A stretch of DNA of 33,807 nt from Faecousia sp. (GTDB lineage: Bacteria; Bacillota; Clostridia; Oscillospirales; Oscillospiraceae), in the NCBI GenBank assembly GCA_045594185.1, contig JAZNYB010000273.1, positions 1 through 33,807 of the forward strand, read 5' to 3'. Each line of letters starts with the position of its first letter. Position 1 is the first letter of the stretch. Positions 1 to 17,135 of the stretch are shown here, piece after piece. Below the pieces are notes generated by a model. That model saw only the letters and a program-made list of their open reading frames with translations. It searched no databases and had not been told where the DNA came from. The translations under genes and the position numbers were made by a program.

Positions 1-201
1 GTCCCGAATATCATGTTGACACTCCAGAACTTCTCCTTCCAGCTTATAGGTTCGCTCAATGAGGTTGTTGTGTTTCTGAACCTTCTCCTCCAGCTTTTGG
101 ATGCGGTACTGGGTCAACCGGCTGGAGGCGATCACCCCCAAGGAGCTGCCCAAAACCGTACCCGCAAGGCTTAAAAGCGCAACCAAAACCGTATCACTCA
201 A
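1..201 (-). CDS. Small phage lysis-module-type membrane protein (holin-associated/XhlA-like), 3' end runs off the window
   Basis: Not in the ORF track. Read manually from TTG at 201 after RBS GAAAGGAG: MSDTVLVALLSLAGTVLGSSLGVIASSRLTQYRIQKLEEKVQKHNNLIERTYKLEGEVLECQHDIRD. One N-terminal TM helix plus a coiled coil with the YRIxxLExKVxKHNNLIERTYKLE motif I recognise from clostridial phage genes next to holin/endolysin. Confidence 0.75.
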   Translation of the reverse strand, partial: MSDTVLVALLSLAGTVLGSSLGVIASSRLTQYRIQKLEEKVQKHNNLIERTYKLEGEVLECQHDIRD

Positions 202-304
202 GCTTTCATCTCCTTTCCAGCAATTCCACCTGTGCAAATTTCCGGCGTATATTTTTCCGTTTCATCTCCACAAGTGCCGTTGCATTTTTGATTATTTGCG
301 GATT

Positions 305-658
305 TCACTCCACCACTGCTTCCCCGCCCCGGATCAGGGTGGTGCGTTCCTGTCCTTGCAGACAAAGGTCATAGGTGTACTTCCCCGCCGGAAACATCGC
401 TGTCATTGCTTCGTCCATGGAAACGGTCAGAACCCCCTGTGCCACGGCATCGCCCTCAAAGCGCAGAGCGGTTACCGGGTCACGGTGCTTGTCGTAAAAG
501 GTCAGCTCCAGAGTATCCGTTTCCCCCGGAATTACCTCCTCGCCGTCTGTGTCCTGCAAGTCCAGATGAAGATGCAGACGGAATGTGTCCCCCTCGTACC
601 AAAAGATGACACCGTTTTCAATTCTGGGCGACATTTTCGCCCAAGGCAGTTTTGCCAT
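305..658 (-). CDS. Phage-like beta-rich protein, 117 aa (resembles BppU-N/tail-adaptor-type domains)
   Basis: Start refined to ATG at 658 after strong RBS AAGGAGG. GDTFxLxLxL...GKYTYDL pattern is typical of baseplate-upper/tail adaptor N-terminal domains. The family call is tentative. Confidence 0.55.
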   Translation of the reverse strand: MAKLPWAKMSPRIENGVIFWYEGDTFRLHLHLDLQDTDGEEVIPGETDTLELTFYDKHRDPVTALRFEGDAVAQGVLTVSMDEAMTAMFPAGKYTYDLCLQGQERTTLIRGGEAVVE

Positions 659-712
659 ATTTATCGCCTCCTTCCCCTGAAGCATAACCCATAAAGGGCA
701 ATTTTGCTAACC
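659..712 (-). promoter_or_regulatory. Phage-late-like leader copy 1: GGTTAG-N20-TATGCT plus RBS
   Basis: Minus strand reads GGTTAG CAAAATTGCCCTTTATGG GTTATGCT TC AGGGGAAGGAGG CGATAAAT ATG, near-identical to the terS leader. Confidence 0.7.
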
Positions 713-789
713 CGGGAAACCCAAGGCAGAATCCCTGCAGGATCATTCTGATCTTAGTTCTTTTACGAAGAATTACAGAAAGATCCAAT

Positions 790-942
790 GCAAATGACAA
801 AGAGAAAGAGAATGACAACGAAAAAGATAATGACAAAGAGAATGACAACGAAAAAGATAATGACAAAGAGAATGAAAAGGAAATGAGAATGACAATGATG
901 AATCGTACCACGAATCGTACCACGAATCGTACCACGAATCGT
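790..942. repeat. Tandem repeat tract: 30-bp unit x2 (811-870) in a purine-rich array, then 12-bp AATCGTACCACG x3.5 (901-942)
   Basis: Directly visible: AATGACAACGAAAAAGATAATGACAAAGAG twice, and AATCGTACCACG three times plus AATCGT. Confidence 0.9.
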
Positions 943-1015
943 GGAAAGGGGGGTAAAACAAGGAAAAGAAGCTAAGGTTAGCGGTTTTTCCTTTTTTGTT
1001 ATACGATGAAGATAG

Positions 1016-1050
1016 AAAAAGTCCCCCCACGGTTCAACCCATGGAGGGAA
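1016..1050 (-). terminator. Intrinsic terminator after ribF (end of the infB operon)
   Basis: Minus strand TCCCTCCATGG-loop-CCGTGGGGGGA stem (two G-U pairs) followed by CTTTTT. Confidence 0.65.
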
Positions 1051-1149: not shown

Positions 1150-2052
1150 TTATATTGATCGTTGTCTTTCCCTGAAATACACCTTTGTCTGCTCTCCATT
1201 GCGGAAAATTTCCTCCCGCAGTGCTTGCAAGTCAGGGAATTTCCGCTCCGGGCGCAGGAATTTGTGCAGCTCCAGATAAATTTCCTCGCCGTACAGGTCA
1301 CCGGAAAAGTCCAGAAGCCATGGCTCTACGGTAACATGGTGCCCTTCCACTGTGGGTCTGACGCCGATGTTTACCACCGCCAGCCAGCTTCCGTCCTTCG
1401 TCACGGCTTTTGCTGCATAAACACCGTAAGGAGGCAAAAGGTCATTCTCACAGGCAAGGTTTGCCGTGGGCGTGCCCAAGGTTCTGCCCAAGCCCCGCCC
1501 GGAAATTACCCTCCCGGTGAGGGAATAGGGATAGCCCAAAAGCTCCGCCGCTTCTTCCATTTTCCCCGCCCCGATCAATTCCCGGATGCGGGTAGAGGAC
1601 ACCACCTTTCCCCCGAGACAAAAGGGAGGAATCACATGGCAGTCCAACCCCAGTTCGTTGCAGGCTTCTTTTAGCAAAATGGCATTGCCCTTACCGCCCT
1701 TGCCGAAACGGTAATCCTCTCCACAGACCAGAGACACTGCCCCCATAGTGTCTATGAGGACATTTTTCAGAAAGTCCTCCCATGGCATATTCCCCATGGC
1801 TTCATCAAAGGGCAACTCCACCAGACAGTCTATGCCGTATTTTTCTTCCATGATCCTTTGCCGCTGCCGGAAGGTGGACAGCAGGGGAATTTCCGTGCCT
1901 GTGAGCAACGCCGAGGGATGTCGGTCAAAGGTCACCGCCACAGCCCGGACACCCAGACGGCTGGCTTCCCCGCGGCAGACCTCCAGCAAAGCCCCATGAC
2001 CCCGGTGAACACCGTCAAAAAAGCCAAGCGCGATCACACAAGCCTGTTTCAC
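1150..2052 (-). CDS. ribF: Bifunctional riboflavin kinase/FAD synthetase
   Basis: GFFDGVHRGH, VSSTRIR, GRTLGTPTAN and FLRPERKF motifs. Start refined to GTG at 2052, overlapping the truB stop (GTGA). Confidence 0.95.
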   Translation of the reverse strand: MKQACVIALGFFDGVHRGHGALLEVCRGEASRLGVRAVAVTFDRHPSALLTGTEIPLLSTFRQRQRIMEEKYGIDCLVELPFDEAMGNMPWEDFLKNVLIDTMGAVSLVCGEDYRFGKGGKGNAILLKEACNELGLDCHVIPPFCLGGKVVSSTRIRELIGAGKMEEAAELLGYPYSLTGRVISGRGLGRTLGTPTANLACENDLLPPYGVYAAKAVTKDGSWLAVVNIGVRPTVEGHHVTVEPWLLDFSGDLYGEEIYLELHKFLRPERKFPDLQALREEIFRNGEQTKVYFRERQRSI

Positions 2053-2930
2053 TGTCCGTTCACCTCGAAAAAGCTCTTTATAGTTGACATAACTCCATTT
2101 TCCACCTTGCCCAGAGCCAGAAACTCCCCCTGCTGATACAGACGGTAAGTCCCCTCCGGCAAGGGTGTGGAAAATCTTCCCCCATTGCGGCAAGCCTTCC
2201 CCTGATTGGGTGTCAGCTCCACAGGAGGGTGCTGCGTAAACATGGAGTCCATGGGAAGAAGGAGCTTTTCCACATCCTCTCCCCGGTCTTTTCTGTCCAA
2301 AAGGTTTCGCAGAGGTATGGCATCCTTCAGGGTATACGCCCCGGCAGCACTTCTCCGCAAGGCAGCCATGCACCCCCCGCAGCCCAAAGCAAGTCCAATA
2401 TCCTTGCACAAAGTCCGGATATAAGTCCCCTTGGAGCAAATCACCCGAAGCGCATAGTCATTTTCGTGATGCTCCAGCAACTCCAAAGCAAAAATCTCAA
2501 TTTCTCTGGGTTGCCGCTCTACAGTCTCCCCTTTTCGGGCTAATTCATAGAGCTTTTTGCCCCCGATCTTCACAGCGGAGTACATGGGGGGGATCTGGGT
2601 CTGCTTTCCCCGGAAACCTTCCAAGGCTTTCAGTACATCCTCCTTGGTTACTGTCACAGGGCGTGTTTCCAGCACTTCCCCGGAGGTGTCCTCCGTATCC
2701 GTCAGAAGCCCCAAACGCAGGGTGGCAATGTATTCCTTTTGGGCGTGTTCAAAAAACTCCACCCCTCGTGTGGCTCTGCCCACAAAAACAGGCAGGACCC
2801 CGGTAGCCATAGGGTCTAAAGTTCCGCCATGACCGATGCGCTTGGTGTTAAAAACACGGCGCAGGCGGGCAGTAACATCCTGGCTCGTCCACCCCTGAGG
2901 CTTGTCTATGATGATGATTCCGGTTGCCAT
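2049..2930 (-). CDS. truB: tRNA pseudouridine(55) synthase
   Basis: IDKPQGWTS, GHGGTLDPMATGVL, QIPPMYSAVK and CSKGTYIRTL motifs; canonical operon position. Confidence 0.97.
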   Translation of the reverse strand: MATGIIIIDKPQGWTSQDVTARLRRVFNTKRIGHGGTLDPMATGVLPVFVGRATRGVEFFEHAQKEYIATLRLGLLTDTEDTSGEVLETRPVTVTKEDVLKALEGFRGKQTQIPPMYSAVKIGGKKLYELARKGETVERQPREIEIFALELLEHHENDYALRVICSKGTYIRTLCKDIGLALGCGGCMAALRRSAAGAYTLKDAIPLRNLLDRKDRGEDVEKLLLPMDSMFTQHPPVELTPNQGKACRNGGRFSTPLPEGTYRLYQQGEFLALGKVENGVMSTIKSFFEVNGQ

Positions 2931-3036
2931 GGCACGAGCCTCCTTTGTGTTTCTCGTAGGAGATCAATACGAAATTTGTTTTATGGGACAGTCCGCACCC
3001 TTTCATGTCTATAGGGCAGCATTGCAAATCGGGATT

Positions 3037-3762
3037 TTACCCCAATACTGCTGATGCAAAGCTAATTACAGAAAACAAGTTGCACAAGCAATGAAATACC
3101 ACGCTTATGTACAAATTCTTTTTCTGATAGGAAACATATGCCACCGGTACAAACGCCAGAATGCGAAATATGTTATTGAATGGGAACCAAAAATGATAGA
3201 GTGAAAACAGGATCCCTATCAGAATCGGTGTAAAGGCGTTTTGTTTTTTGTAATGGGAGGTAAGGTATCCTCTAAAAAACAATTCTTCCGTTATGGGCCC
3301 AATCAGGACATTAAAAACGCCATAGTATACACAAGTAGCAATAAGGGCTGGTTTTGAAAAGTATTGCAGATATTCATAATTTGTCCAATCAAAACCTGCT
3401 GGCAAACGATCAAGCACTTTTCCTCTTATACCCATGAAAATTTGGTTTTCCACCGGTGCGACAAAAGCCGACAGCAAGCCCGCTATTCCAAAGAACGCAA
3501 ACGCAATGATCAACACTTTCCAAATGGAAGTCTTTTCCTGACCTGCAAATGCGCTTTTAAGGGAATATGTCCCATATTCATTTTTGCTTGCTGTTAAAAT
3601 AATACCCAACTCCATGGGAATCAAGATTAGTGTTGCCAATATACAGAATAACAAGATGTGGGGTATTTTGCTAAAATGCCCCAACAAGAGATAAGCTGTG
3701 CTAAAAACGGCTGTGGGAATAAAAATTCTCAGCAAGAGTCCTTTTGTCCCGATTTTACTCAT
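3037..3762 (-). CDS. CPBP (CAAX/Abi) family intramembrane glutamic metalloprotease
   Basis: Multi-TM protein with EELFFRG, FSLYH and FHCLCN motifs; visibly AT-richer than its neighbours. Confidence 0.88.
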   Translation of the reverse strand: MSKIGTKGLLLRIFIPTAVFSTAYLLLGHFSKIPHILLFCILATLILIPMELGIILTASKNEYGTYSLKSAFAGQEKTSIWKVLIIAFAFFGIAGLLSAFVAPVENQIFMGIRGKVLDRLPAGFDWTNYEYLQYFSKPALIATCVYYGVFNVLIGPITEELFFRGYLTSHYKKQNAFTPILIGILFSLYHFWFPFNNIFRILAFVPVAYVSYQKKNLYISVVFHCLCNLFSVISFASAVLG

Positions 3763-3811
3763 CGTAAATATTCCTCACAAAATTCATAATCCAGTTGTGG
3801 GTATTATGTGG

Positions 3812-3992
3812 CAAAATTTTGGTTTGTTGGGGAGATTTTACCCTCTCAGTCGGCTACGCCGACAGCTCTCCCAAAGGGAGAGCCAAGGCATTGTTCCAGT
3901 CTTGTGGCGACCCACTTGTCTCTCCCCTTGGGAGAGGTGCCCAGTGCGCACACTGGGCGGAGAGGGTAAACACCCAGTTAAATCGGAATTTG
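3812..3992. repeat. Short non-coding element with conserved ends and REP-like nested palindromes
   Basis: Ends CAAAATTTTGGTTTGT...TAAATCGGAATTTG. Internal hairpins GTCGGC-tac-GCCGAC, GCTCTCCC-aaa-GGGAGAGC and CCCAGTG-cgca-CACTGGG; outer ACCCTCTC/GAGAGGGT. Confidence 0.75.
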
Positions 3993-4003
3993 CCGCTATT
4001 TTC

Positions 4004-4954
4004 TTAAATCAGCCCCAATTTTTTCAGGGCATCCAGCACCATTTCTCCTGCTTTTTCCTGATTTTCCCGGATGGTTGCCCCTGCCGCCGCTCTATGACCG
4101 CCTCCGCCAAAGCAGGCGCAAAGAGCCGCCGCGTCATACTCAGGGGCGCACCGCACAGAGAGCTTGGTGCTGCCGTCTTTTATGGTGCGGAAGGTGACAG
4201 CCAAATGCACCCCCGCCACACTGCGCCCAAAGCTGGACACATCCTCCAGATCGTCCTCCCCCAAGCCCAGCTCCTGCTCCAATTCCCAAGGGATGAACAC
4301 AAGGGCGATCTTACCGTCAGCATAAAGGCGCAAATGCTCCGTCATATAGGCGTTAAGGCGGTGTCTGCCCAGAGAAATTGTTCCATAGACCTCTTTGTTG
4401 ATTCGGTAGAAGTCCGCACCGGCTTCTAAGCAGGCAGCAGCGGTGCGCAGCGTATGCCCGGTGGTGTTGGAATAGCGGAAGCAGCCGGTATCTGTACACA
4501 CCGCCACATAAAGGGCGTTGGCAATGTCTCTGTCCAGCTCCACCCCAAGGGCAGTCAAAAGCTCATAAATGATCTCTCCGCAGGCGGCGGAAGCTGGGTC
4601 GTTGTATCCTTGCCCCGCAAAGCCCCGGTTGGTGCCGTGGTGGTCAATGAGCAGATCAATGGGTCTTTCCTTCCAGTTTTGGGGGAGCATTTCCGTTCCT
4701 GCCACATCCACCGTAACCACCGTGGCATCTTCCGCAACGGTTTCCACGGTCAGCCCAGCCAAATATGGGGCATACCGGGGGGTGATCTGCGGATTTTCCA
4801 AAACAGAAGCATTTTTCCCCAGCTTTCGCAGCCCCCGGCACAGAGAAGCGGCGCAGCCCACGGTGTCCCCATCCGGGCGGCGGTGGGTCACAAGAACGAA
4901 ATGATCATTCCCCCGCAGCCACAGGGCAGCCTGCTCAATGGTCAGCTTCTTCAT
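4004..4954 (-). CDS. nrnA: DHH/DHHA1 bifunctional oligoribonuclease/PAP phosphatase
   Basis: HRRPDGD, IDHH, TDTGCF and GGGGHRAAAG motifs; located downstream of rbfA. Confidence 0.92.
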   Translation of the reverse strand: MKKLTIEQAALWLRGNDHFVLVTHRRPDGDTVGCAASLCRGLRKLGKNASVLENPQITPRYAPYLAGLTVETVAEDATVVTVDVAGTEMLPQNWKERPIDLLIDHHGTNRGFAGQGYNDPASAACGEIIYELLTALGVELDRDIANALYVAVCTDTGCFRYSNTTGHTLRTAAACLEAGADFYRINKEVYGTISLGRHRLNAYMTEHLRLYADGKIALVFIPWELEQELGLGEDDLEDVSSFGRSVAGVHLAVTFRTIKDGSTKLSVRCAPEYDAAALCACFGGGGHRAAAGATIRENQEKAGEMVLDALKKLGLI

Positions 4955-5309
4955 TTTCTTCGTCCTTTTGAATGTTCAGAGAGCCTAAAAGGTTCAGCAT
5001 ATACTGTCCTCTGGTGATGGAGTCATCCTCCTGCCATTGAAGCTCAGGGGTATAACGCAGGTTCAGTGCCGCCCCCAGCTCCCGGCGAAGATACCCTCCC
5101 GCGGATCTCAGCCCCTTGATCGCCTCCGCTGCCTTTTCCTTCTCCAAAAAGCTCACATAGATCTTGGAGTAGCGCAGATCGGGGGTGGTTTCCACTCTGG
5201 TAATGGAGATCATAGTGCCGGACACTCTGGGATCTTTCAGATTCCGCAGCAGGTCGGACAATTCCTTCTGGATCTCCTCGTTGATCCGTCCAATTCGATT
5301 GGATGCCAT
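4935..5309 (-). CDS. rbfA: 30S ribosome-binding factor A
   Basis: RINEEIQKELS..KDPRV, TRVETTPDL and LRYTPEL motifs. Confidence 0.96.
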   Translation of the reverse strand: MASNRIGRINEEIQKELSDLLRNLKDPRVSGTMISITRVETTPDLRYSKIYVSFLEKEKAAEAIKGLRSAGGYLRRELGAALNLRYTPELQWQEDDSITRGQYMLNLLGSLNIQKDEENEEADH

Positions 5310-5392
5310 TTGGCTTCCTCCTTTGCATACTTATTCACTATTCACTACAAAGCCAGCCGCCCCGAATGACCGGCGCGGCTGGGGTAAGGGAA

Positions 5393-7732
5393 TTACTGCT
5401 TGATTTCTTCCATGGCGAAGCATTCGAAGATGTCGCCTTCCTTGATGTCGTTGTACTTATCGATGGACATACCGCACTCATAGCCGGCAGTGACTTCCTT
5501 GGCGGCATCCTTAAACCGCTGCAAAGAGCCCACAACGCCCTGATGGAGAACCACATTGTCACGCAGCACACGAACCTGAGCATCTCTTGTGACCTTGCCG
5601 TCCTTGACGAAGCAGCCGGCAATGGTACCGATGGCGGACACCTTGTAGGTCTGGCGAACCTCGGCATGACCAATGACCACTTCCCGATACTTGGGAGCAA
5701 GCATACCCTTCAGGGCCGCTTCAATTTCGTTAATGGCATCGTAAATAACACGGTAGAAGCGCATATCCACCTTGGAACGGGCGGCACTTGCCTGCGCGCC
5801 GTCGTCGGCACGGACATTGAAGCCGATCACAATGGCGTTGGCGGTGGAAGCCAGAAGAATGTCGGACTCGTTGATGGCACCGACACCGGCATGGATGACC
5901 TTGACCCGGACTTCCTCGTTTGCCAGCTTCATGAGGCTTGCCTTAACCGCTTCGGCGGAGCCCTGCACATCAGCCTTGACGATCAGGTTCAGCTCCTTCA
6001 TTTCCCCTTCCTTCATCTTGGCAAAGAGGTTATCCAGCGTGACCTTTGCGGTAGCCTTGGCAGCGGCATCCTTCTCAGCCTGACGGCGCTGCTCCACCAG
6101 CTCACGGGCCATGCGCTCATCGGAAACGGCGTTGAACTCGTCACCGGGGGCGGGAACATCCGCAAGACCCGTAATTTCAACAGGCACGGAAGGCCCTGCG
6201 GTCTTGACGGTGCGACCCTTGTCGTCGGTCATCACACGGACACGACCCACAGCAGTGCCGGCAATGATCACATCGCCCTGATGGAGCGTACCATTTTGCA
6301 CCAGAAGGGTAGCAATGGGGCCTCTGTTTCTGTCCAAACGGGCTTCGATCACCGTACCCTTGGCGGCACGGTTGGGGTTTGCCTTCAGCTCCTGCACCTC
6401 GGCGGTGAGGATGACCATTTCCAGAAGCTCGTCAATGCCCATGCGCTGCTTGGCGGAAATGGGGCAAATGATGGTATCGCCGCCCCATTCTTCCGCAACC
6501 AGCTCATACTCCGTAAGCTGCTGCTTGATGCGGTCGGGGTTTGCGCCGGGCTTATCCATCTTGTTGATGGCTACGATAATGGGAATATTGGCTGCCTTGG
6601 CGTGGTTGATGGCTTCCACGGTCTGGGGCATGATGCCGTCGTCAGCGGCGACCACCAGAATGGCAATGTCGGTACACATAGCACCTCTTGCGCGCATGGA
6701 GGTAAAGGCGGCGTGACCGGGGGTATCCAGGAAGGTAATGGGGTTTCCATTGATCTGGACGGTATACGCGCCGATGTGCTGGGTAATGCCGCCGGCTTCC
6801 CCGGAGGCAACATTGGCGTGACGGATGGCATCCAGCAGGCTGGTCTTGCCGTGGTCAACATGACCCATGACAACCACAACAGGACTGCGGGATTGCAGCT
6901 CCTCGGCGGTATCCACATGGTCGTCAATGATCCGCTCCTCAATGGTGACGGTGACTTCCTTCTCCACCTTGCAGCCCATTTCCGTGGCAACAAACTCGGC
7001 GGTATCAAAGTCAATGACCTGATTGATGGTAGCCATGATGCCGTTTTTCATCAGGGTCTTAATGACCTCAACGGCAGTCTTTTTCATCATGCTTGCCAGC
7101 TCAGAAACCGTGATCTCCTCGGGGATCTTCACGGTGAGGGGAGTCTTTTTAATGACCTCAAGCTGCAAACGGCGCATCTTTTCCTGTTCCTCGTTGCGAG
7201 CCTTGTTGCCCTTGAACTTGTCGCCCTTCTGCTTTTTCTGCTTGCCGCCGCCGATTCTCTGCTTGCCGCCGGTGAGATTCTGCGCCCGCTCGGATACCAA
7301 GGTATCTACCCGGTCATCAAACCGCTCCACATTGACCCGCACAGCGGAGGTATCCACCACCCGGCGTTCTCTTTTCCGTTCCGGCTCTTTGGGAGCTTCC
7401 TGCTTCTGGGGAGCTTTGGGGGTTTCCTGCTTTTGGGGAGCTTTTCCTGCGGGTTTTCCGCTTTCCGGCTTCGCTTCTGCCTTCTGCTCCTGCGCTTTGG
7501 GCTCTGCCTTGGGTTCTTCCTTGGGCTGTGCCGTGGCAAAAACTCTTTCCAGAGAATCGATCTGATTCTTCTGTGTCACATATTCAAAAAAGATGTTGAG
7601 CTGCTCGTCGGTCAAAACCTGAGAGCTGCTCTTGGGGCGGTCAAAAAACTTCCCCAGGATCTCCGTGACCTCTTTTGCGGTCATGCCCAGGTCCGCGGCA
7701 ACCTCCCGAACGCGATATTTCACAAAACTCAT
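5393..7732 (-). CDS. infB: Translation initiation factor IF-2
   Basis: [28 protein letters not shown] and KADVQGS motifs. Confidence 0.99.
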
Positions 7733-8460: not shown

Positions 8461-8722
8461 CGTTTCCCTCCATTTCCTTCCGCAGCTGCTCCAGCACCGT
8501 CTCCGGCACTGTCACTTCCAAATTCCGATCCAGAGACTTGGAGCGGATCGCCTTTTTCAGGCACGCCTCACTGGGGCAGACATAAGCACCCCGCCCCGGG
8601 GCTTTTCCGTAAAAATCCAGACTTACAGCTCCCTCCGGGGAGCGAACCACCCGGATCAGCTCCTTTTTTGGTTTCCGTTCCCGGCAGCCCATGCACTGGC
8701 GCATGGGAATTTTCTTCTGCAT
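8441..8722 (-). CDS. ylxR: YlxR/RnpM family RNA-binding protein
   Basis: PMRQCMGCRE, ELIRVVR and GRGAYVC motifs; located downstream of nusA. Confidence 0.93.
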   Translation of the reverse strand: MQKKIPMRQCMGCRERKPKKELIRVVRSPEGAVSLDFYGKAPGRGAYVCPSEACLKKAIRSKSLDRNLEVTVPETVLEQLRKEMEGNDEAQCH

Positions 8723-8760
8723 TGTGTCTGCCCTCCTTTCAGGGGTGTAATGGGTCGGGC

Positions 8761-9915
8761 TTATTCCTCAGCTTCCCCGGCTTCCTCCTGCTTCTGGGCT
8801 TCTTCCTCCGCAGCCTTGGAAGCGGGCTTGATGTCGATCTTATAGCTGGTCAGGCGAGCGGCAAGGCGGGCGTTCTGACCTTCCTTACCAATGGCAAGAC
8901 TGAGCTGATCATCGGGAACTACCACACGGCAGGCTTTCTGCCCGGGGATCTGCTCCACGGAGATCACATCCGCGGGAGCCAGAGCCGCCGCCACATACTG
9001 GCAGGGGTCTTCAGACCAGGTGACGATGTCGATCGTCTCGCCGTGAAGCTCATTTACCACGGCGGCAACACGACCACCTCTGGGGCCAACGCAGGAGCCC
9101 ACAGGGTCGATGCCCTCCTGCATGGCACGAACGGCGATCTTACTGCGGCTGCCGGGCTCACGGGCAATGTTCCGCAGCTCCACCAGACCGTCAGCGATCT
9201 CAGGCACTTCCAGCTCAAACAGGCGGCGAACCAGATTGGGATGGGTTCTGGATACGGCAACCAGAGGCCCACGGTTGGAGCGGTGGACATCGATCACATA
9301 AACACGGATGATCTCGCCCTCTCTGTATACCTCACCGGGGATCTGCTCTCCGGCTCTCAAAACGGCATCACTGCGCTCGCTGCCCGCGCCCACCTGAATG
9401 AAAATATCCTTGGAGAGAGGATCAACACGGGAGACAGTGCCGGTGAGCATTTCCTGATTCTTGGAGGAGTAGCTGTCATACATGACTCCCCGCTCGGCTT
9501 CCCGGATGCCCTGAATAATGACCTGCTTAGCGGTCTGGGCAGCGATACGACCGAAGGTTTCCACCTTTACAGGGATGCTCACCACATCGCCCACCTTGGC
9601 GTTGGGGTCAACATTCCGGGCAGCATCCAAAAGCATTTCGGCGTTGGGGTTTTCGATCTCCTCCACCACCGTCCACTGCTGCACCATGGACATTCTGGTT
9701 TCCGTCAGCTCCACCACAACATTTTCGGAAACAGGGAGCTTGTGATCCTCCCGATCCTTGCGGTAGGCATTGACCAAAGCCTGCTTGATCCTTTCCACCA
9801 TGTACTCCACGGGAATGTGGCGTTCTTCATCCAGTGCCTTCAAAGCGGAGAAGATCACATCGGGCTGGCAAAGCTGAGGCTCGGGGTTGACTTTCTTTCT
9901 GGTACTTCTTGCCAT
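8761..9915 (-). CDS. nusA: Transcription termination/antitermination factor NusA
   Basis: FGRIAAQTAKQVI, AREPGSRSKIAV and AIGKEGQNARLA motifs. Start refined to ATG 9915 (RBS GGAGGA). Confidence 0.97.
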   Translation of the reverse strand: MARSTRKKVNPEPQLCQPDVIFSALKALDEERHIPVEYMVERIKQALVNAYRKDREDHKLPVSENVVVELTETRMSMVQQWTVVEEIENPNAEMLLDAARNVDPNAKVGDVVSIPVKVETFGRIAAQTAKQVIIQGIREAERGVMYDSYSSKNQEMLTGTVSRVDPLSKDIFIQVGAGSERSDAVLRAGEQIPGEVYREGEIIRVYVIDVHRSNRGPLVAVSRTHPNLVRRLFELEVPEIADGLVELRNIAREPGSRSKIAVRAMQEGIDPVGSCVGPRGGRVAAVVNELHGETIDIVTWSEDPCQYVAAALAPADVISVEQIPGQKACRVVVPDDQLSLAIGKEGQNARLAARLTSYKIDIKPASKAAEEEAQKQEEAGEAEE

Positions 9916-9932
9916 GACACACAGTCCTCCTG

Positions 9933-10385
9933 TCAAAATTCCACACGAAGCCGCACCAGAGCGACCTCGGTCTTTTCAAAAGTATAATTTCCGGCAGGGG
10001 TGGAGATGCTCACACGCCCGCCCTCATAGTTTTCCAACACACCGGGAAATTCTTTCATCCCATTTTTGGGCTGATACAGCTTCACCAGCACGGCACTTCC
10101 CATAAACCGGGCAAAGTCCTCCGGCCGCTTCAGCACCCGCTCCAATCCGGCGGAGCAGACCTCAAAATGATAGCTGTCGGGGATGGGGTCTTTTTCATCC
10201 AGAATGGGGTCTAAGGCACGGGAGACAGCCTCGCAATGAGAAATGTCCACACCGCCTTCTCTGTCGATATACACCCGGAGGAACCAGTCAGCACCCTCCC
10301 GGACATATTCCACATCCCAAAGCTCCAGCCCCAGCCCTTCCACCACAGGGCGGGCAAAGGCTTCAACCTGTTCCGTGATCTTCAT
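9933..10385 (-). CDS. rimP: Ribosome maturation factor RimP
   Basis: LRVYIDREGGVDISHCEAVSR and EVCSAGLERVL motifs; first gene of the operon. Confidence 0.96.
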   Translation of the reverse strand: MKITEQVEAFARPVVEGLGLELWDVEYVREGADWFLRVYIDREGGVDISHCEAVSRALDPILDEKDPIPDSYHFEVCSAGLERVLKRPEDFARFMGSAVLVKLYQPKNGMKEFPGVLENYEGGRVSISTPAGNYTFEKTEVALVRLRVEF

Positions 10386-10410
10386 AGCAACACGCCTTTC
10401 TCAGCAAGAA

Positions 10411-10432
10411 AGAGAGGGGCTAACCCCTCTCT
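10411..10432 (-). promoter_or_regulatory. Hairpin in the rimP 5' leader
   Basis: Perfect stem AGAGAGGGG-TTAG-CCCCTCTCT between the promoter and rimP; a leader hairpin is commonly seen upstream of rimP. Confidence 0.55.
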
Positions 10433-10462
10433 CCCTCAAAAAATCTACTGCTTACGGTGTCC

Positions 10463-10491
10463 ATTATAGCACCCCAAGCTCTATATTGCAA
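10463..10491 (-). promoter_or_regulatory. sigmaA promoter of the rimP-infB operon
   Basis: TTGCAA-N17-TATAAT with extended TG. Confidence 0.75.
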
Positions 10492-10627
10492 GAGGATTTT
10501 TGAAGTTTTTTCTGAAAAAGCTCCTGTTTTTTCGGAAAATGTCAGGGTTCTCCCTGCAACAAATGCCACCATGAACCAAAAGCACATGGCGGCACCGTTA
10601 TTTAAGTTTTCGGCAAGAGCTTCTGTC

Positions 10628-12808
10628 TTACTCCGCAAGGATGGTGATACGCCCCTGGGGATCGCTATACTCTGTGCCCACAACGCCCTCCAGCACCACC
10701 GTGATGTACTCCATGAGAGCCTCGTCCATGGGGATGCCGGTGTCAAACCGCTCTGTGGCACTGGCAAAAGCATAGTAGGTATCCCCGCCGGCGGCAAGGA
10801 AGTTGTTGGTCACCACGGCGTAGATTGCGTTTACATCAAAGCTCTGACCGTTCACTTCCTCAATGGAAACACGGTTAATGGAGGCAGGGCCATAGTAGGT
10901 AGAGCCGGGATAGGATGCTACCTTGGGGTCATATTCCTTGGTGGTATCCACGGTGAATTTCAGTCCCGCCACCTGAGGAAATGCCCCGGTAGTCTCAGGG
11001 GTGCAGAAGGTGGAGGCCTCCAGTGCTTCCAGCAGCTCCGCTCCTGTAACATAGACCAGGCAAACCGTGTTGCCGAAGGGAAGAACGGTATTGACATCAT
11101 TTTTGGTGATGTCTCCCGCCCCGATGGAGGCACGGATGCCGCCGCCGTTGGTAATGGCGATCACATTTTCGGCTCTGACCTTAACGCTTCCCTCATTCTT
11201 CAAAACCGTCCAAAGCAGAGCGTCCGTGATCAGGTCGCCCAGATTGGTTTCCTGAGCGCGAACAGACTCCCGCACGCCATTAAGCTCCACCTCGCTTCTG
11301 GCAAACACCTTGCCGTATTCCTCCAGAACCCGGTCAATGATTTCCTTGGCGGCAGCGGCGACCTTCTCCTCACCTTCACGCCACAGGGAGTTTCCCTCCT
11401 CGTCGGTATACTTCAGGGCTTCCAGACCATTGTCCTCGATCTCCCCGGTGCGGCTGTTCAGAAGGATGTAGCCCACATATTCCAGAGCCGTGCCGGTGGA
11501 CTGGATGGGTTCACCCTTTTCCCCCTCCGTCATAACCGTGTGGGAATGACCGTCAATGATGAAGTCCAGACCCGTGGTATTGGCATACAGATCCGGGGAG
11601 CGGTTGGGCTGAGACGCGGCATCCACACCCAAATGCGCCAAAGCAATGACCACATCGGCGGTGCTTTTCAGGGTATCCACTTCCTCCTGCACCGCTTCGT
11701 ACATATCCTCCCCTGCCAGGAAATTCAGTCCCTTAATCAGAGCGGGGTTTGCCTTGGTTTGAGATTCCGGGGTATTGACACCAACGAAGCCCACCTCCAG
11801 ACCAAAGGCAGAGGTGATCACAGTGCCGGGGGCATAGATCGGCTCACCTGCGGCATCCAGAACATTGGCGCAGATCACTTCAAAGCCTGCTTTTTCCAGA
11901 TTGCCCTTCAAGACCTCATAGCCGTAGTCAAATTCATGGTTGCCCAAAGTGGCGATATCGTAACCGGCAGCGTTCATCATAGTCACGGCATCGGCACCCT
12001 TGGTGGTGCTGACATAAGTCGTTCCCTGACTGAAATCCCCGGCATCCACCAGAATCACATCGGCACCCAGCAGCTCAAGCTGTTTTTTCAGGGAAGCGAC
12101 GGCGGCATAGCCCTCAATGGCACCGTGGACATCGTTGGTATGCAGAACAATGGTTTTTCCGTAATAGGGAGAGGACACGGACATCAGCATACGGTACAGC
12201 ATCTCTGCCAACTCCGCCCGCATACAAGTTCCCTTGGGGGCAAGCTGATCCTGGGCGCGACCTCTCACAATGTAGTTATGAACCGCCCACTGCATAGCTT
12301 CCTCTGCCCAGTCGGACACTTTGGGTGCATCGGCATAGCCGCTCAGGTCTTCCCGCCCCTCATTATCTTTTTCCGAAAATTGAACAAACCGGAAGAAGAT
12401 GCTTGCCAGCTCCTCCCGGGTGGCGGTATTCATGGGTCTGAAAGTACCGTTGCCATAGCCCATCACGATCCCATTGGCAGCAGCCCATTCCACGGCTTCG
12501 GAATACCACTTTCCCGCAGGCACATCGGAGAAGGTATTTTCGTCGGTTACCTCCTCCTGTCCCGCCACACGGTAAAGCACCGTTACGATCATGGCTCTGG
12601 TAACGGTGGCTTTGGGGGCAAAGTGGGTTTCGCTTACGCCCTGCATAAAGCCCGCTGCGGTCAGGGTCATCACCGCGTTATAAAACCAATCGTCTTCTTC
12701 CACATCCACATAGGTTTTGGTGGCGCTTTCCCCAAAGGCCGTGGGAGCCATGGTCAAAACCATCGCCAGAGCCAGCACCAGCGCGAGAAGCTTTCTCGTC
12801 CGTTTCAT
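10628..12808 (-). CDS. Secreted SLH-anchored bifunctional metallophosphatase/5'-nucleotidase
   Basis: Start refined to ATG 12808 (RBS AGGAGG). Signal peptide, three SLH repeats, then LHTNDVHG, DAGD, GNHEFDYG, AHLG, DGHSH and NGGGIRA motifs. Confidence 0.92.
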   Translation of the reverse strand: MKRTRKLLALVLALAMVLTMAPTAFGESATKTYVDVEEDDWFYNAVMTLTAAGFMQGVSETHFAPKATVTRAMIVTVLYRVAGQEEVTDENTFSDVPAGKWYSEAVEWAAANGIVMGYGNGTFRPMNTATREELASIFFRFVQFSEKDNEGREDLSGYADAPKVSDWAEEAMQWAVHNYIVRGRAQDQLAPKGTCMRAELAEMLYRMLMSVSSPYYGKTIVLHTNDVHGAIEGYAAVASLKKQLELLGADVILVDAGDFSQGTTYVSTTKGADAVTMMNAAGYDIATLGNHEFDYGYEVLKGNLEKAGFEVICANVLDAAGEPIYAPGTVITSAFGLEVGFVGVNTPESQTKANPALIKGLNFLAGEDMYEAVQEEVDTLKSTADVVIALAHLGVDAASQPNRSPDLYANTTGLDFIIDGHSHTVMTEGEKGEPIQSTGTALEYVGYILLNSRTGEIEDNGLEALKYTDEEGNSLWREGEEKVAAAAKEIIDRVLEEYGKVFARSEVELNGVRESVRAQETNLGDLITDALLWTVLKNEGSVKVRAENVIAITNGGGIRASIGAGDITKNDVNTVLPFGNTVCLVYVTGAELLEALEASTFCTPETTGAFPQVAGLKFTVDTTKEYDPKVASYPGSTYYGPASINRVSIEEVNGQSFDVNAIYAVVTNNFLAAGGDTYYAFASATERFDTGIPMDEALMEYITVVLEGVVGTEYSDPQGRITILAE

Positions 12809-12886
12809 TTGGTCAACCTCCTGAAGCATTGCTTCCCCCGGACAACCACCGGGGAGCAAATTTTTCAGGCTATGGCTTGGGGAAGT

Positions 12887-12981
12887 CAATTCCGATTTAT
12901 CGTTCTCAATGCGCCCACAGGGGCAATTCATGGCGATAAGCCCAATTCATGCACCCGAAGGGTGGCGACAAACCAAAATTT
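12887..12981. repeat. Short element with conserved ends (copy of the 15053-15106 element with an extra internal segment)
   Basis: CAATTCCGATTTATCGTTCTCAATGCGCCCACAGGG...GGGTGGCGACAAACCAAAATTT; matches the reverse complement of 15053-15106. Confidence 0.8.
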
Positions 12982-13044
12982 ACAATTCCTTTCGGCTCAT
13001 AGCCTGAATTTTATTTTACCAGTTGACCGCAAAAAAGGCAATGC

Positions 13045-13329
13045 CTACTTTTCCTGAAAACCCTCCGAACAGGAAAACACAGCATTTTCCGGGAACGATT
13101 CCGCCAAAAGCTTCAATCCGGCGCAAACGAAATCCGCCTCCGGGCAGGGCTCGGAGAATCGAAACGCCCCGAAGCCCTCCCCCATTTCTGCCGCTCCCTC
13201 CGGAAGCACCGCCCGCAGTGTTTCCGTGAGAATGGATACGGCGGCGCAAACCAGATCCTGCCCTTTTGGAGCAGTTCCGGCGTGCCCCCTTATCACCAAT
13301 CGCCCCGGCGACCTGACCGCCCGGATCAT
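13045..13329 (-). CDS. Prp-like (DUF464) cysteine protease, phage-head-associated type
   Basis: GHAG...GQDLVCAAVSIL carries the catalytic His/Cys motif of Prp; ATGA-coupled to the portal stop. Confidence 0.8.
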   Translation of the reverse strand: MIRAVRSPGRLVIRGHAGTAPKGQDLVCAAVSILTETLRAVLPEGAAEMGEGFGAFRFSEPCPEADFVCAGLKLLAESFPENAVFSCSEGFQEK

Positions 13330-15020
13330 ACGCCCCCCTGCGCAACGGCTCTTGCCTTTTCCACAAAGGGATGCTCCCCGGAAGCCGCAGTCACAGCCGC
13401 CCGGTGCATTTGGGCAAGCCGCATTGCTTCATAGCTCCGTTTCCCCTCCGCGACCCGGCGGATCACTTCCGTTTTCCCCTTAAAGTCCATCATACCCAGC
13501 ATCATCAATGCCTGATCCGCCCGCTGGGGGTCAAACACGCCCATCTGGTAAAGCTGCACCGCAAGGTCGTTATAGGTCTGCTTTTTGTACTGGCTCTCTG
13601 TCTGTACCTCCACCTCAATGTCAAAAACCGGCTGCCGCAGACCGCCGTCCCGCTCCATGGCACGAAGCCCATCGTTGGCATAGGAGATATACCGGGCAGC
13701 ACCGTACTGTCCCAGGATCCGGAATCTCCGGGGCAGGGCATAAAACTGCCGGATCAGCTCAACGCAAAGCTCCGTCACTCTCCGGAAGGCACGGTAAGAC
13801 GAGGCGATCATGTCCCGGCTCAGTCCGTTTCCTGCCTCCTGCAAGGCGGCAATGGCAGAAGCGGCGGTGACTGCGGAGGAAGTGCCGCCGTTATTTACAT
13901 CCCGGTTGCCGCTGACCTCCTTCATCTCGTTGATCTTCATCTGCATATAGGTCAGGCAAGCCTGGGGCATGGGGTGGGTGGTGATCTGCTTCACGCTGTC
14001 GTCATCAATGCGCCCGGCAACATGAACGAACTTTTTGGTCATGTCCGCGTATTCCGCTTCGTTGACCCCACCATCCAGGCGCACAAACCACCGGGGGGTT
14101 GCGGAGGCTACGGCATTCTGCAAAATGCAGTTGTTGAGAATGTCAATGGATTTCTGGGGATCTTTGCACAGGTCTACATAGCCATAGCCGCAGCCGGGAT
14201 AGCCCTCCTCAGGAAACAGAGGGTCGAAAATGAAGGGATACTTGCCGTGGTCATACAATCCCCTTTGGGCATAGTCCGGCTCATTTTCCGTGGCAAACAG
14301 CACCGTGTCCCCCACAAACTTACAGAAATGAAGCACGCCGCCCTTTTTGTAGTACACATCCACCACTGCCGCCTTGTCAGCCGTGGAGATCGCCTCATCG
14401 TAGTGGTACTGCCGCACCAGTCCGGTATCCTGTCCCCATGTGTTTTTAAGCTGGGGATACGCCTCCTCCAGCTCCTGCCTGTCCATGAGCAGAACATGGA
14501 ACAGGTATTTGGACTTTTGAATATCCTTGATGCCCGGCTCCCAGAACAGATTGAGAATGTCCACCTTCTCCACGGAAATGTCTCCCAGACCGTTCAGCTT
14601 GCTCTCATCCCAGAACACGCCGTATACCCCCGTGCCGGATTTCAGCTTATACCACCACACATCCGACCACACCTGTCCGAAGTCGTTATGCTCCAGAATC
14701 ACCGGCAAAATGGAGGACAGTGCCTCCGCTTCTCCCCGGTCGCTTTCCTCTCTGGCAAGGCAGACAGGCTCCGGGTAGGCGTCCACCGCATCGGAATGTT
14801 TGGACAAAATGGCATTGACCAGCCAGCCGGAAGCAGGCTCAGGCTCACCGGGATTCTGGGGTCGGATGGAACGCCAATGGCGCAGCTTCCAGTATTCCTC
14901 CGCCTGAATGATGCGGCTGTCCAGAGCGTTCTTTCCCGCCCGGTAGGTTTCCAAAGCCTTGCGGAATTTCTCCAGCTCCGGCTTTCCAATGGGGGAAGCG
15001 GTTGTTTCGTGATGATTCAT
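13326..15020 (-). CDS. Phage portal protein (P22-like by motif impression)
   Basis: 564 aa directly after terL with a strong RBS; YPFIFDPLFP, GYGYVD..KDPQ..ID and GNRDVNNG..TAASAIAALQEAG patterns. Confidence 0.8.
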   Translation of the reverse strand: MNHHETTASPIGKPELEKFRKALETYRAGKNALDSRIIQAEEYWKLRHWRSIRPQNPGEPEPASGWLVNAILSKHSDAVDAYPEPVCLAREESDRGEAEALSSILPVILEHNDFGQVWSDVWWYKLKSGTGVYGVFWDESKLNGLGDISVEKVDILNLFWEPGIKDIQKSKYLFHVLLMDRQELEEAYPQLKNTWGQDTGLVRQYHYDEAISTADKAAVVDVYYKKGGVLHFCKFVGDTVLFATENEPDYAQRGLYDHGKYPFIFDPLFPEEGYPGCGYGYVDLCKDPQKSIDILNNCILQNAVASATPRWFVRLDGGVNEAEYADMTKKFVHVAGRIDDDSVKQITTHPMPQACLTYMQMKINEMKEVSGNRDVNNGGTSSAVTAASAIAALQEAGNGLSRDMIASSYRAFRRVTELCVELIRQFYALPRRFRILGQYGAARYISYANDGLRAMERDGGLRQPVFDIEVEVQTESQYKKQTYNDLAVQLYQMGVFDPQRADQALMMLGMMDFKGKTEVIRRVAEGKRSYEAMRLAQMHRAAVTAASGEHPFVEKARAVAQGGV

Positions 15021-15052
15021 ACTAAATACCTCCTGATGATATAGTAGAGTGA

Positions 15053-15106
15053 AAATTTTCGTTTGTCAGCACCCTGTGGCGCATTGGGAACGATAAATCG
15101 GAATTG
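15053..15106. repeat. Minimal copy of the short conserved-end element between terL and portal
   Basis: Reverse complement CAATTCCGATTTATCGTTCCCAATGCGCCACAGGGTGCTGACAAACGAAAATTT. Confidence 0.8.
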
Positions 15107-15115
15107 CCCTTTCTA

Positions 15116-16537
15116 TCATAAAAACGCCACCCGGTCGAAGCGGTCTTTATCCGTCATCTGATTTAAGGGGTCACTCCAAACAGGCTCCGCTGTCACAGAC
15201 ATTACCGGCTTAATGGGTCTTGTCATGCACATATACCGCACCTCGTCGGCTACATGATCTTCTCCCTCCGTGTCCAGATCTTCCGGGCGGCGATCGTCAT
15301 ACATGAGAAGGGGCATGGTGCGAATAAAGGCTTTGCACCCCTCAAAGACATACATCATGGCGTATCCATTCTCGTCAAAGGCAAGTCGGTAATGCACCTG
15401 CATCCAGCCGGGGATACGGTCATTGACGCCGGGGGAAAAGTACAGTCCGTACTTCACCGCCGTATCCGCCACGCTCTCTCCCTTGCTGCCATCCCAAATG
15501 GAGGGGTCAGCCACCCCCAGAATCTCTCTGCCCCTCAGCCACGGATGCTCCCTTTCAATGCGTTTTGCCTCCTGCATCTGCCGGTCTACCGTCCACTTCA
15601 CGCCCTCATTGGGGTTTTTGGTGCAGCCGTACAGCTCCAAGATCCGGTAGATCACGCCCTCATAATCCACTGCCCACCAGCCGAAGGAGAAGGGCTTTCC
15701 GTAGCCCCAGTCGTAGCTGCGGTAGATCGTCCAGCTTTTGGGAATGTCGAAGGGCTTGATCACATGACACCAACGCCGCTCCCGGCGTAACTGCTCCGGG
15801 TCTCCCAGGTCAGCCGGAGGATCTGGACGGAAGTCCTCAAAGAACTGCCCCTCGTATACATCCCACCTGCCATGAAGCCAGGCATCTTTGATCTTGCCGG
15901 GGAGCTTTTCAAGGCTTCTGATGTACTCCGGCTGAGCCTTCATCAAGGCAGTGTTGTCCGTGACCAGAGCCTGAATGAAGCTGTAATCCTCCGGGTGTTC
16001 TCCGTTTTCAAAACGACGATCAATGAAAAGCCGCTTGAAATAGCCGTGACTTGGGCCTCCGGGGTTCAGGGTGTAATAAGTCCTCTTGGGAAAGCTGTTT
16101 GCTCCACGGACACAGGCATCAATGGAGGTCAGCCAATTTTCCTGAAACTGCCCCGCTTCGTCAGCAAACCAAATGTCATACTCCGCGCCCTGATATTGCC
16201 CCAGATCTCCCTCATTGGCGCAGTAGCCAAACCAGATGGAAGATCCGTTGGGGAACAGAAAGCATTTGTCCGTCTTGTTGTACCTTGCCGCCCCATGGAG
16301 CATGGCTTGTAAGGGGTTAATGTGGTTGTTGAGAAGCTCCCGATAGGTTTTTCTGGTAATGAGACACTTAATGCCGGGGAATTTGGCGCACAGCAGCACC
16401 GCCTTCCACCGGACGAACCAGCTTTTCCCGCCCCCTCTCGCGCCACCGTAGGCTACATAGCGATGGCGATCCCGAAAGGCAAGAAGCTGCTTCTCGTTGG
16501 GCTGCTCCATGGGGATGGGGCTCAGATTATTCCGCAA
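15116..16537 (-). CDS. terL: Phage terminase large subunit
   Basis: Walker A GGARGGGKS, Walker B IWFADE, motif III TLNPGG, and nuclease acidic motifs SYDWG and EDHVADEVRY. The start is TTG 16537 or ATG 16510. Confidence 0.93.
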   Translation of the reverse strand: MRNNLSPIPMEQPNEKQLLAFRDRHRYVAYGGARGGGKSWFVRWKAVLLCAKFPGIKCLITRKTYRELLNNHINPLQAMLHGAARYNKTDKCFLFPNGSSIWFGYCANEGDLGQYQGAEYDIWFADEAGQFQENWLTSIDACVRGANSFPKRTYYTLNPGGPSHGYFKRLFIDRRFENGEHPEDYSFIQALVTDNTALMKAQPEYIRSLEKLPGKIKDAWLHGRWDVYEGQFFEDFRPDPPADLGDPEQLRRERRWCHVIKPFDIPKSWTIYRSYDWGYGKPFSFGWWAVDYEGVIYRILELYGCTKNPNEGVKWTVDRQMQEAKRIEREHPWLRGREILGVADPSIWDGSKGESVADTAVKYGLYFSPGVNDRIPGWMQVHYRLAFDENGYAMMYVFEGCKAFIRTMPLLMYDDRRPEDLDTEGEDHVADEVRYMCMTRPIKPVMSVTAEPVWSDPLNQMTDKDRFDRVAFL

Positions 16538-17081
16538 GCTCCTCCACCTCCTGAGAAAGCTGGATGCCGTAGCCTGTAACAGTCTGCTCCGATTGCTCCC
16601 GGAGAAGCTCCATTTTCTCCTCTGCCAGCTTTTGGGCGTGCTTTTGGGCCTGGGTGGGAAGCTCCTTGATATCCCGGATCACATCGGTCAGCTCCCGCAG
16701 CACCTTGGAAACCACCTGCACAGCGGAAATGTCCACCTTGTCCAGCCAAATCGTCTCCGGCACACTGTCCTCCACGGTTTCGCCGTTTTCGTCCTTGCTT
16801 TTGGTGCGGACGGTACGCAAATGCAAATGAAACTGATCCGAATCCCGCACCATTTCCTCCAACACCTGACACAGCATCACCGCCGTATCCATAAGTGTCT
16901 GCAGATCTCCTTCCCCGGAGGGCTTTTTCTGCTCACGCCTGTAGGCAAGCCTTTTTTTGTGCCAGCCAGCCTGCCTTCCCAGATTTCGCAGCGCAGTCCC
17001 TTCCAGCCCATGCTCCTTCGCCAAAGCTTCATAGGACATATCTCCGGTAACATAGGCTTTTTCCAATTTCTGTGACTCCAT
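16527..17081 (-). CDS. terS: Probable terminase small subunit (N-terminal HTH)
   Basis: YVTGDMSYEALAKEHG...GW HTH pattern, helical body, and overlap with the terL start. Confidence 0.7.
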   Translation of the reverse strand: MESQKLEKAYVTGDMSYEALAKEHGLEGTALRNLGRQAGWHKKRLAYRREQKKPSGEGDLQTLMDTAVMLCQVLEEMVRDSDQFHLHLRTVRTKSKDENGETVEDSVPETIWLDKVDISAVQVVSKVLRELTDVIRDIKELPTQAQKHAQKLAEEKMELLREQSEQTVTGYGIQLSQEVEELAE

Positions 17082-17135
17082 GCCGTCACCTCCTTCCCCT
17101 CCAGCATAACAAAAGAGCCTTTCCCGCTTCTAACC
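17082..17135 (-). promoter_or_regulatory. Phage-late-like leader copy 2: GGTTAG-N21-TATGCT plus RBS
   Basis: Minus strand reads GGTTAG AAGCGGGAAAGGCTCTTTT GTTATGCT GG AGGGGAAGGAGG TGACGGC ATG. Confidence 0.7.

Follow-up and report, generated by a model that had tools for sequence, protein, structure and literature searches.

The window analysed here is a stretch of 33,807 nucleotides from Faecousia sp. (Oscillospiraceae; GenBank assembly GCA_045594185.1, contig JAZNYB010000273.1, positions 1 to 33,807 of the forward strand) that carries two phage-derived operons. Together with further loci of the same genome they belong to the particle kit of a short-tailed phage, which is, judged by its genes, complete and distributed among eight or more chromosomal sites under a shared promoter-like box, GGTTAG-N20/21-TAnnnT. 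Our favoured reading, to which we give better than even chances, is that of a domesticated short-tailed phage whose scattered modules share this box and which acts as an inducible system resembling a gene transfer agent (GTA), likely with run-off replication from several sites. The modules, the box, an orphan regulator locus, the replication initiators, gene-less (solo) copies of their iteron arrays and the conservation of these parts are directly observed. A domesticated phage with scattered late genes sharing the GGTTAG box had already been proposed from the window alone (the sequence-only reading), and all genomic predictions of this proposal that were tested held. The window is contig C273 of genome G000 (2.16 Mb, 83% complete, 289 contigs). 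Other labels with G denote related genomes (among them G211, G059, G241, which is 82% complete, and G044, which is 98% complete), C with a number denotes a contig of G000 unless another genome is named, and L with a number a retrieved locus.

The packaging operon of the window lies on the reverse strand and comprises the genes for the terminase small subunit TerS (16527..17081, -), whose residues 5-51 form the N-terminal segment phrog_1206, the terminase large subunit TerL (15116..16537, -), a P22-like portal protein (13326..15020, -; PF16510, phrog_156) and a Prp-like cysteine protease (13045..13329, -; PF04327), with Prp standing at the same position in FpGTA, the GTA of Faecalibacterium. 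In the whole genome one TerL (searched with three queries), one portal and one capsid gene of the N4-gp56 type were found, the last matching TIGR04387 with 240 bits at a cut-off of 60. Genes for capsid, scaffold, tail and lysin, predicted to exist elsewhere, were all found in G000 behind the same box, and so were fibre genes. Contig C116 carries it before a scaffold-capsid-adaptor-nozzle-tail operon, two box-led tail-fibre operons are located on C13 and on C229 (continuing into C192), and two box-led replication initiators on C2 (with DUF6291) and on C90/C132 (phrog_6251, with a helicase loader). Together with the window and its continuation (C273/C210) and the regulator locus on C91 all these modules stand among host genes. 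Neither a sheath nor a tube gene occurs among them, in agreement with a short-tail architecture. No integrase was found among the open reading frames (ORFs) beside the window modules, and the arrangement of an intact prophage (contiguous, with an integrase and its own replication region) is absent. RNA-library contigs touch terS, the portal gene and a lysis gene at depth 2-10, which cannot show transcription. A separate integrase-bearing prophage is represented by its left arm after rpsP on C287 (L039, 7623-15056), where it is ended by the contig edge; no second TerL was found in the genome.

At the left end of the window the lysis operon starts with a gene for a 117-aa beta-sandwich protein (305..658, -), a predicted tail-fibre collar or anchor, followed by an ORF of about 75 aa (1..237, -; phrog_1863) that is truncated by the window edge. 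The window overlaps C210 by 82 nt, which yields the order 117-aa protein, ~75-aa ORF, holin and endolysin, and the same order is found in G211. The first gene had been called tail-like. This is fair as regards the protein, a beta-sandwich resembling fibre collars and anchors, but the operon is mainly a lysis cassette (holin, endolysin). The structural model (predicted local distance difference test, pLDDT, 87.8) matches minor tail, tail fibre and LtfC/p132/Gp6-type domains in BFVD with E values of 1e-5 to 1e-4; the best PDB rows, which include the DT57C baseplate and the T5 tail tip, are weak (E 0.003-0.004). Its orthologue stands before fibre genes in G059 and G044. PDB matches to WD-repeat proteins were rejected, as no stretch of the 117-aa alignment passed.

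Both leaders read as originally described. The lysis operon is preceded by GGTTAG-N20-TATGCT at 681..712 (-), a predicted activator-dependent promoter that also stands before the orthologue in G211, G059, G241 and G044, and terS by GGTTAG-N21-TATGCT at 17103..17135 (-), the predicted packaging-operon promoter, retained in G211, G059 and G241. The 25-nt blocks covering the -10 element and ribosome-binding site of both leaders agree at 22 of 25 positions. Chance or ribosome-binding-site similarity as the source of this likeness is ruled out by two observations. Firstly, the spacing spectrum (spacings 5 to 59) of the 158 GGTTAG hexamers in G000 shows TAnnnT at spacing 20 in nine and at spacing 21 in seven cases (16 in total), as compared with a mean of 1.9 and a maximum of 5 sites at the 53 other spacings. 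Secondly, a matrix trained on 19 hand-chosen sites of four relatives, none of them from G000, was run on G000. Its top ten sites are seven phage module leaders (of the terminase-portal, scaffold-capsid-tail and lysis operons, of two fibre operons and of two replication initiator operons), the terS leader ranking first, and three boxes beside solo arrays. Scores above 16 were reached by 11 sites, against 0-3 at four control spacings. The variant GGATAG is not enriched in G000 (nine sites at spacing 20/21, mean 4.4 per spacing). This genome-wide scan confirms the presence of the box before head, tail, fibre and lysin genes outside the window. The putative box promoters have a -10 element and no canonical -35. 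Host promoters were said to be of the ordinary sigmaA type, and this stands for the one examined, a sigma-70-like site at 13041-13013.

Some further sites may be mentioned here. A GGATAG-type site before a gene that we take to be ComF-like (C204:2079; matrix rank 12) is possibly a chance occurrence, and so is the position of a metallo-beta-lactamase-fold lipoprotein gene, presumably ComEC-like, at 17208-18401 of the window, divergent from terS. Between genes at 21182-21151 (-) of the window lies GGATAG-N20-TATAGT (matrix rank 14), with no ORF called behind it. In G241 two overlapping boxes stand back to back (L100:6456-6467), one for the head-tail operon and one for a collar-holin operon.

An orphan regulator was also looked for. 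A regulator module was indeed found on C91; no RinA/ArpU or sigma-like family, from which the activator had been expected to come, occurs in it, the search having covered this module. In it, the genes for a helix-turn-helix repressor and a protease of the M78 (ImmA/IrrE) type are transcribed away from the gene of a 75-aa protein, that of a YqaJ-type nuclease and a 95-aa ORF. A promoter of the form TTGACA-17-TATAAT faces the 75-aa gene. TAC-N4-GTA palindromes lie within this promoter and on its flanks, and promoter and operators are conserved in five genomes. Control by LexA was considered and rejected: the LexA motif GAAC-N4-GTTC is absent from the five regulator regions.

The small protein (70-75 aa, 75 aa in G000) has four invariant cysteines and forms 3,103 clusters at 50% identity, without belonging to any Pfam, PHROGs or NCBIfam family; with P2 Ogr it presumably shares size and cysteine content only. 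Based on its gene context it is the likely activator of the box promoters. In contiguous relatives its gene lies directly before terS, and in two contiguous elements GGATAG-N20/21-TAnnnT stands before both terS and the scaffold gene, which are the two points where the system is split in G000. A scan of viral contigs led by the putative activator returned one locus only and was replaced by a TerL-led scan, in which 157 loci with sufficient upstream DNA were reduced to 65 by dereplication at 90% identity. In both groups, loci with and without the small gene in cis, spacing 20/21 is the peak; among the 11 loci that have a relaxed box before terL and lack the gene in cis, three belong to split genomes and three have the gene further upstream. 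The strict box is no universal marker of the activator, as only 2 of 23 loci with the gene show it in the strict and 9 of 23 in the relaxed form. Since the association is thus loose across these loci, activation can only be inferred. Several phage terS leaders (L211, L253, L258, L046, L051, L190) show variant hexamers (GGGGTG, GTCTAC, GATTAC, GGATAC) at the same spacing of 20-21, hinting at specificity groups within the putative activator family. In G044 (L322:3384-4205) an initiator gene is found inside the regulator operon after the small four-cysteine gene, an arrangement that likely represents an intermediate stage of dispersal.

Two features of the window had escaped the sequence-only reading. 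Between the box at 712 (-) and a third, outward-facing box at 976..1007 (+; GGTTAG-N20-TACGAT, matrix rank 6) lies a solo, gene-less copy of what is apparently a phage replication origin (792..942, +), composed of a purine tract rich in A (792-899) and of a 12-bp iteron present in 3.6 copies (900-942). The third box, a predicted origin-activating promoter, starts 34 nt past the iterons, is directed away from them and has no ORF behind it. Over 92 nt the array matches the central part of the C90/C132 initiator gene with 88% identity; no other part of that gene is copied, and no remnant of the initiator N-terminus was found near the array. The iteron core is pseudo-palindromic, and gene and solo copies differ at the central base. 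Of 13 metagenome matches, four have the window repeat within an initiator gene and others have it in phage-like replication regions, so that it is regarded as an iteron. No conspecific copies of the array were among these 13 matches. The layout of a lambda-type origin, i.e. iterons and an A+T-rich tract inside the initiator gene, is present in the C132 gene and in homologous phage genes, and the solo copies keep this segment. In lambda, a promoter downstream of the origin and directed away from it can activate it (PMC5043065).

Further copies of the C90/C132 array lie between genes on C38 and C266, and on C198, 54 nt before a box, lies a more distant version (69% identity over 140 nt) of the repeat region of the C2 initiator. 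The three boxes of the matrix top ten that are not module leaders flank such copies of the arrays of box-led initiators. Whole-genome searches of relatives with their own initiators revealed one copy each in G059 and G211 and two in G044; three of these four arrays were first seen in regions fetched by the box, the whole-genome searches being independent of it, and the second initiator of G059 was compared with ten fetched loci only. In total there are eight solo arrays in four genomes, of four initiator types, each matching the initiator of its own genome. Six of the eight have a strict box within 500 nt, as compared with 1.8% of intergenic positions in G000, and in five of these six the box follows the array and is directed away from it. 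Other repeat arrays (C226, C242, C165, C101) have neither an initiator match nor a box.

The particle regulon could be real and the solo arrays nevertheless have another role, as initiator sinks (by titration or as decoys against related phages), or be inert by-products of duplication. The arrays turn over fast, those on C266 and C198 are degenerate, and repeats nearby suggest copying by recombination; in plasmids, iteron arrays titrate their initiators. On the other hand, for each of four unrelated initiator types it is precisely the iterons and the A-rich segment that the copies retain, and a sink would presumably need no promoter, whereas six of the eight arrays adjoin a box. We regard such a role as improbable. 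Similarly low is the chance that packaging has a pac site within or close to terS as its starting point and continues, in the manner of lateral transduction, into adjoining chromosome that has been amplified, fed by the window origin 16 kb downstream. Its basis is that solo origin and terS share one contig and that the N-terminal segment of TerS is retained in G000 and G211. This segment is nevertheless missing from the shortened TerS of G059 (132 aa), TerS of G241 is shortened to 77 aa, and most solo origins are not known to be near terS.

Concerning repeats and initiators, two box-led initiators of G059 (L093:2912-4591 and L091:261-2315) reach 560 and 684 aa because of long repeat arrays inside them; the first is followed by a DnaB-like helicase gene. 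A family of short dispersed repeats is found beside solo arrays at C266 ~1910-2000 (with matches on C58, C51, C38, C194, C160 and more), and similar-looking repeats occur at the break between terL and portal in G211 (break points of L325 and L326). Such repeats may drive the shuffling of modules.

According to the reading as a domesticated, GTA-like system, an ImmR-type repressor would bind the TAC-N4-GTA operators within the perfect TTGACA-17-TATAAT promoter on C91 until ImmA-type proteolysis removes it in a few cells. The 75-aa four-cysteine protein would then activate sigma-A polymerase at GGTTAG-N20/21-TAnnnT promoters and thereby turn on the packaging, head-tail, fibre and lysis operons as well as the two initiators, one of them with a helicase loader. 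The initiators are expected to bind the iterons of both their own genes and the solo copies, where transcription away from the copy may help opening in the manner of the lambda origin, leading to run-off replication at several sites without excision. Heads would be filled with chromosome pieces of roughly FpGTA size, enriched near the origins, and cell lysis would follow. Beyond this, we propose with somewhat less than even confidence that the phage was rebuilt as a chromosome-wide regulon which recruited initiators from passing phages, seeded gene-less origins and fires them from its own promoters, so that one switch amplifies chosen host regions into transfer particles.

The same regulon could also produce killers or decoys like PBSX, particles that package host DNA without delivering it. 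PBSX is likewise gated by a repressor and an ImmA-type protease. The fibres vary between lineages, with two fibre operons in G000, and delivery by FpGTA is itself unproven, its authors raising the killer or decoy option (PMC12946183). What speaks against this explanation is the short-tail architecture without sheath or tube gene, and repeated recruitment of initiators and origins would be more sensible if the DNA content mattered. It is unlikely, though it deserves more weight than the sink and pac-site explanations.

The system is apparently inherited together with the host genome within a small clade. Judged by NusA the three nearest genomes to G000 are G211 (91% identity), G241 and G059 (82% each), and all three possess the split system, the boxes and the orphan regulator, which means that the modules are not strain-specific. 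Ranks of identity agree for NusA, TerL, capsid and the candidate activator. In a quick portal tree (42 rows, midpoint root, without a clade test) the split portals group with that of G044 in a single clade (support 100), separate from contiguous elements, FpGTA-like ones included. NusA sets G000 and its three nearest relatives apart as well (support 97). Hence particle genes follow the species tree, as had been asked of them, in this small clade only, and vertical inheritance as expected of a GTA is likewise seen only there. Outside it the small gene precedes terS in G116, G122 and G299, and on contigs of sufficient length both belong to a contiguous cluster; 5 of the 12 nearest genomes lack a close TerL, and the initiators turn over. 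Module flanks differ in G059 and G241. The ratio of nonsynonymous to synonymous substitution rates (dN/dS, after Nei-Gojobori) indicates purifying selection and ranges overall from 0.03 to 0.52 against the three nearest relatives, with 0.03-0.28 for 20 genes compared with G211, 0.08-0.39 for 17 genes compared with G059 and 0.11-0.52 for 17 genes compared with G241; host genes give 0.04-0.19 at similar dS.

The two window operons are separated by core translation genes, as had been stated. This host block (1150..12931, -) lies outside the system and contains ribF, truB, rbfA, infB, nusA, rimP and an S-layer 5'-nucleotidase gene, of which the first and the last were assigned by Pfam and the others named from their translations. 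A chimeric assembly, which would have undermined the whole proposal, was not borne out at the junctions tested. In G211 the same host neighbours are found upstream of terS and downstream of portal-prp, and a contig of run X3 (12730-13162, four differences) connects the start of the nucleotidase gene with the end of prp, which together argue against a chimera.

These data also bear on the view that the modules are debris of several prophages of one family, sharing a late promoter by descent and without present function. Related phages of about 40 kb do exist, with 63-71% identical TerL and similar boxes in their terS leaders, and this TerL is matched in only 87 of 299 Faecousia genomes. Debris would nevertheless hardly leave a single intact, non-redundant set with low dN/dS at host-like dS and the same flanks in G211, and boxes are kept before genes that are operon-internal in contiguous elements. 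This view is largely refuted, and we consider it very improbable.

Several observations weigh against a domesticated, GTA-like system as outlined above. The fold of the candidate activator is weakly modelled (pLDDT 66, best Z 3.9), and neither PDB (representatives and sequences) nor BFVD yields a match. Of the dereplicated loci, 9 of 23 with the small gene in cis and 11 of 42 without it have a relaxed box before terL. Six of the 16 strict sites in G000 are unexplained, about four being expected by chance. Synonymous divergence is near saturation for modules and host genes alike. In G211 the portal gene is separated from terL, with no box in its leader of ~180 nt; no capsid gene was found in G044 despite its completeness of 98%, and in the 82% of G241 neither a box-led initiator nor a solo array. 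TerS of G000 keeps its N-terminal segment, unlike TerS of FpGTA, which is without an obvious DNA-binding domain. As to the origins, the window iteron occurs in none of the 298 other Faecousia genomes, so that single origins are perhaps not conserved; two of the eight arrays (on C38 and on C56 of G044) have no strict box, the C266 array has 1.7 iterons only and a box directed inward, and behind the arrays of G059 and G044 the boxes lead into genes.

Some loci of relatives deserve mention. A prophage of G211 (L074-L077) has a TerL 94-95% identical to that of G000, as close as the domesticated copy, with a portal of only 68-69% identity, and four contigs break inside terL. This suggests either exchange of terL between the prophage and the domesticated locus or assembly collapse, and TerL trees may therefore mislead. 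In G013 a contiguous element of another clade also lies beside rimP (L026:50-16746), in an arrangement opposite to that of the window. A second, distant terminase-portal lineage (TerL 35-44%) is found in host-like gene context in other families of the order (L013, L015, L017, L019), in L013 with a sigma-like gene upstream, and may be another domesticated system. Many capsid matches (L142, L144, L156-L175) span ~1,300-1,400 nt as against a query of 341 aa, which corresponds to an insertion of ~100 aa, and L142 has tail, capsid and terminase genes in scrambled order among host genes.

Two papers of 2026 describe GTA-like packaging in Oscillospiraceae and report no strong GTA gene cluster for the genera concerned, with Faecalibacterium as the one exception. 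A system divided into pieces of 2-8 kb among host genes would escape prophage-based screens. The box, the putative activator family and the search from initiators to solo arrays offer three handles for finding such systems, and with a candidate master switch named, a Gram-positive GTA might become inducible on demand. If the interpretation is true, solo origins let the cell bias which chromosome parts are transferred, the positions of coverage peaks become predictable, and run-off replication would be multi-origin and programmable under an unnamed family of four-cysteine activators with more than 3,000 clusters. For the related genus Pelethomonas two broad coverage peaks of virus-like particles were described, the second without a helicase nearby, and no strong GTA cluster (bioRxiv 2026.07.08.737213); solo origins would provide a testable explanation for this second peak.

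In the literature we found no report of the box, of the activator family or of gene-less phage origins under a GTA promoter, most subscription journals being outside the search. GTAs have been defined (PMC9662315) by caudoviricete virion proteins, endogenization, vertical inheritance, inability to package the whole genome, packaging of mostly random host DNA and delivery. Three of these six features are found here: G000 encodes, as seen from the genes alone, caudoviricete TerS, TerL, portal, capsid, tail, fibre, holin and endolysin families, they are endogenized over several loci, and inheritance is mostly vertical within a small clade. Dispersal of the modules over many loci would be expected to preclude packaging of the whole element. 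Activators of the Ltr type (RinA/ArpU/LtrA-C) share with the small four-cysteine gene the position before terS under repressor control; Ltr proteins have ~130 aa and bind direct repeats (PMC3753634), whereas here the candidate has 70-75 aa and the putative target is a single hexamer at fixed spacing. The small protein does not group with Ltr proteins, as it matches none of their sequence families, is only 70-75 aa long and shows no match to the shared C-terminal domain. PBSX is contiguous and has a contractile tail and a sigma-like factor. PBSX of Bacillus subtilis does not excise, is gated by a repressor and packages host DNA in a Gram-positive host (in part after PMC12946183), as is proposed for the system described here.

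That a split system like a GTA is present, with several loci under one box, agrees with the original proposal, but its closest known counterpart is FpGTA and not RcGTA. FpGTA I has the order TerL, portal, Prp, N4-gp56 capsid, small ORF, adaptor and nozzle (PMC12946183, supplementary file 4), and its homologues of the genes described here make DNA-filled particles (PMC12946183). We found the homologous locus via the capsid match in all 41 Faecalibacterium genomes; its identification as FpGTA I is based on gene order and on its ubiquity rather than on an accession. In three loci compared, identity is 41% for TerL, 46-47% for portal, 42-44% for capsid, 26-33% for adaptor and 32% for nozzle. Both systems share the head and short-tail gene order including the scaffold and have fibre and lysis genes apart. 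They differ in that FpGTA occupies two loci and G000 at least eight, in that G000 has replication initiators and solo origins whereas no replication genes are reported for FpGTA, and in the portal tree, where FpGTA forms a separate branch with phages and other elements standing between it and G000. The small four-cysteine protein was found in 0 of 41 Faecalibacterium genomes (in a search without a positive control), and three Faecalibacterium leaders examined have no strict box. Contiguous FpGTA-like loci of Faecousia itself (G013, G004, G008 and others) are single clusters on the other portal branch, with no box before terS.

For the replication step the closest parallel is BaGTA of Bartonella, in which phage-derived run-off replication in place is coupled to packaging of host DNA (PMC2697382). 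This coupling has been demonstrated there and is predicted for G000. BaGTA uses one phage origin region, in contrast with several initiators and gene-less origin copies in G000, and its capsid belongs to another family (HK97-type query, PMC9662315). The system of G000 likely represents a domestication separate from FpGTA, which would work like FpGTA with a replication step of the BaGTA kind.

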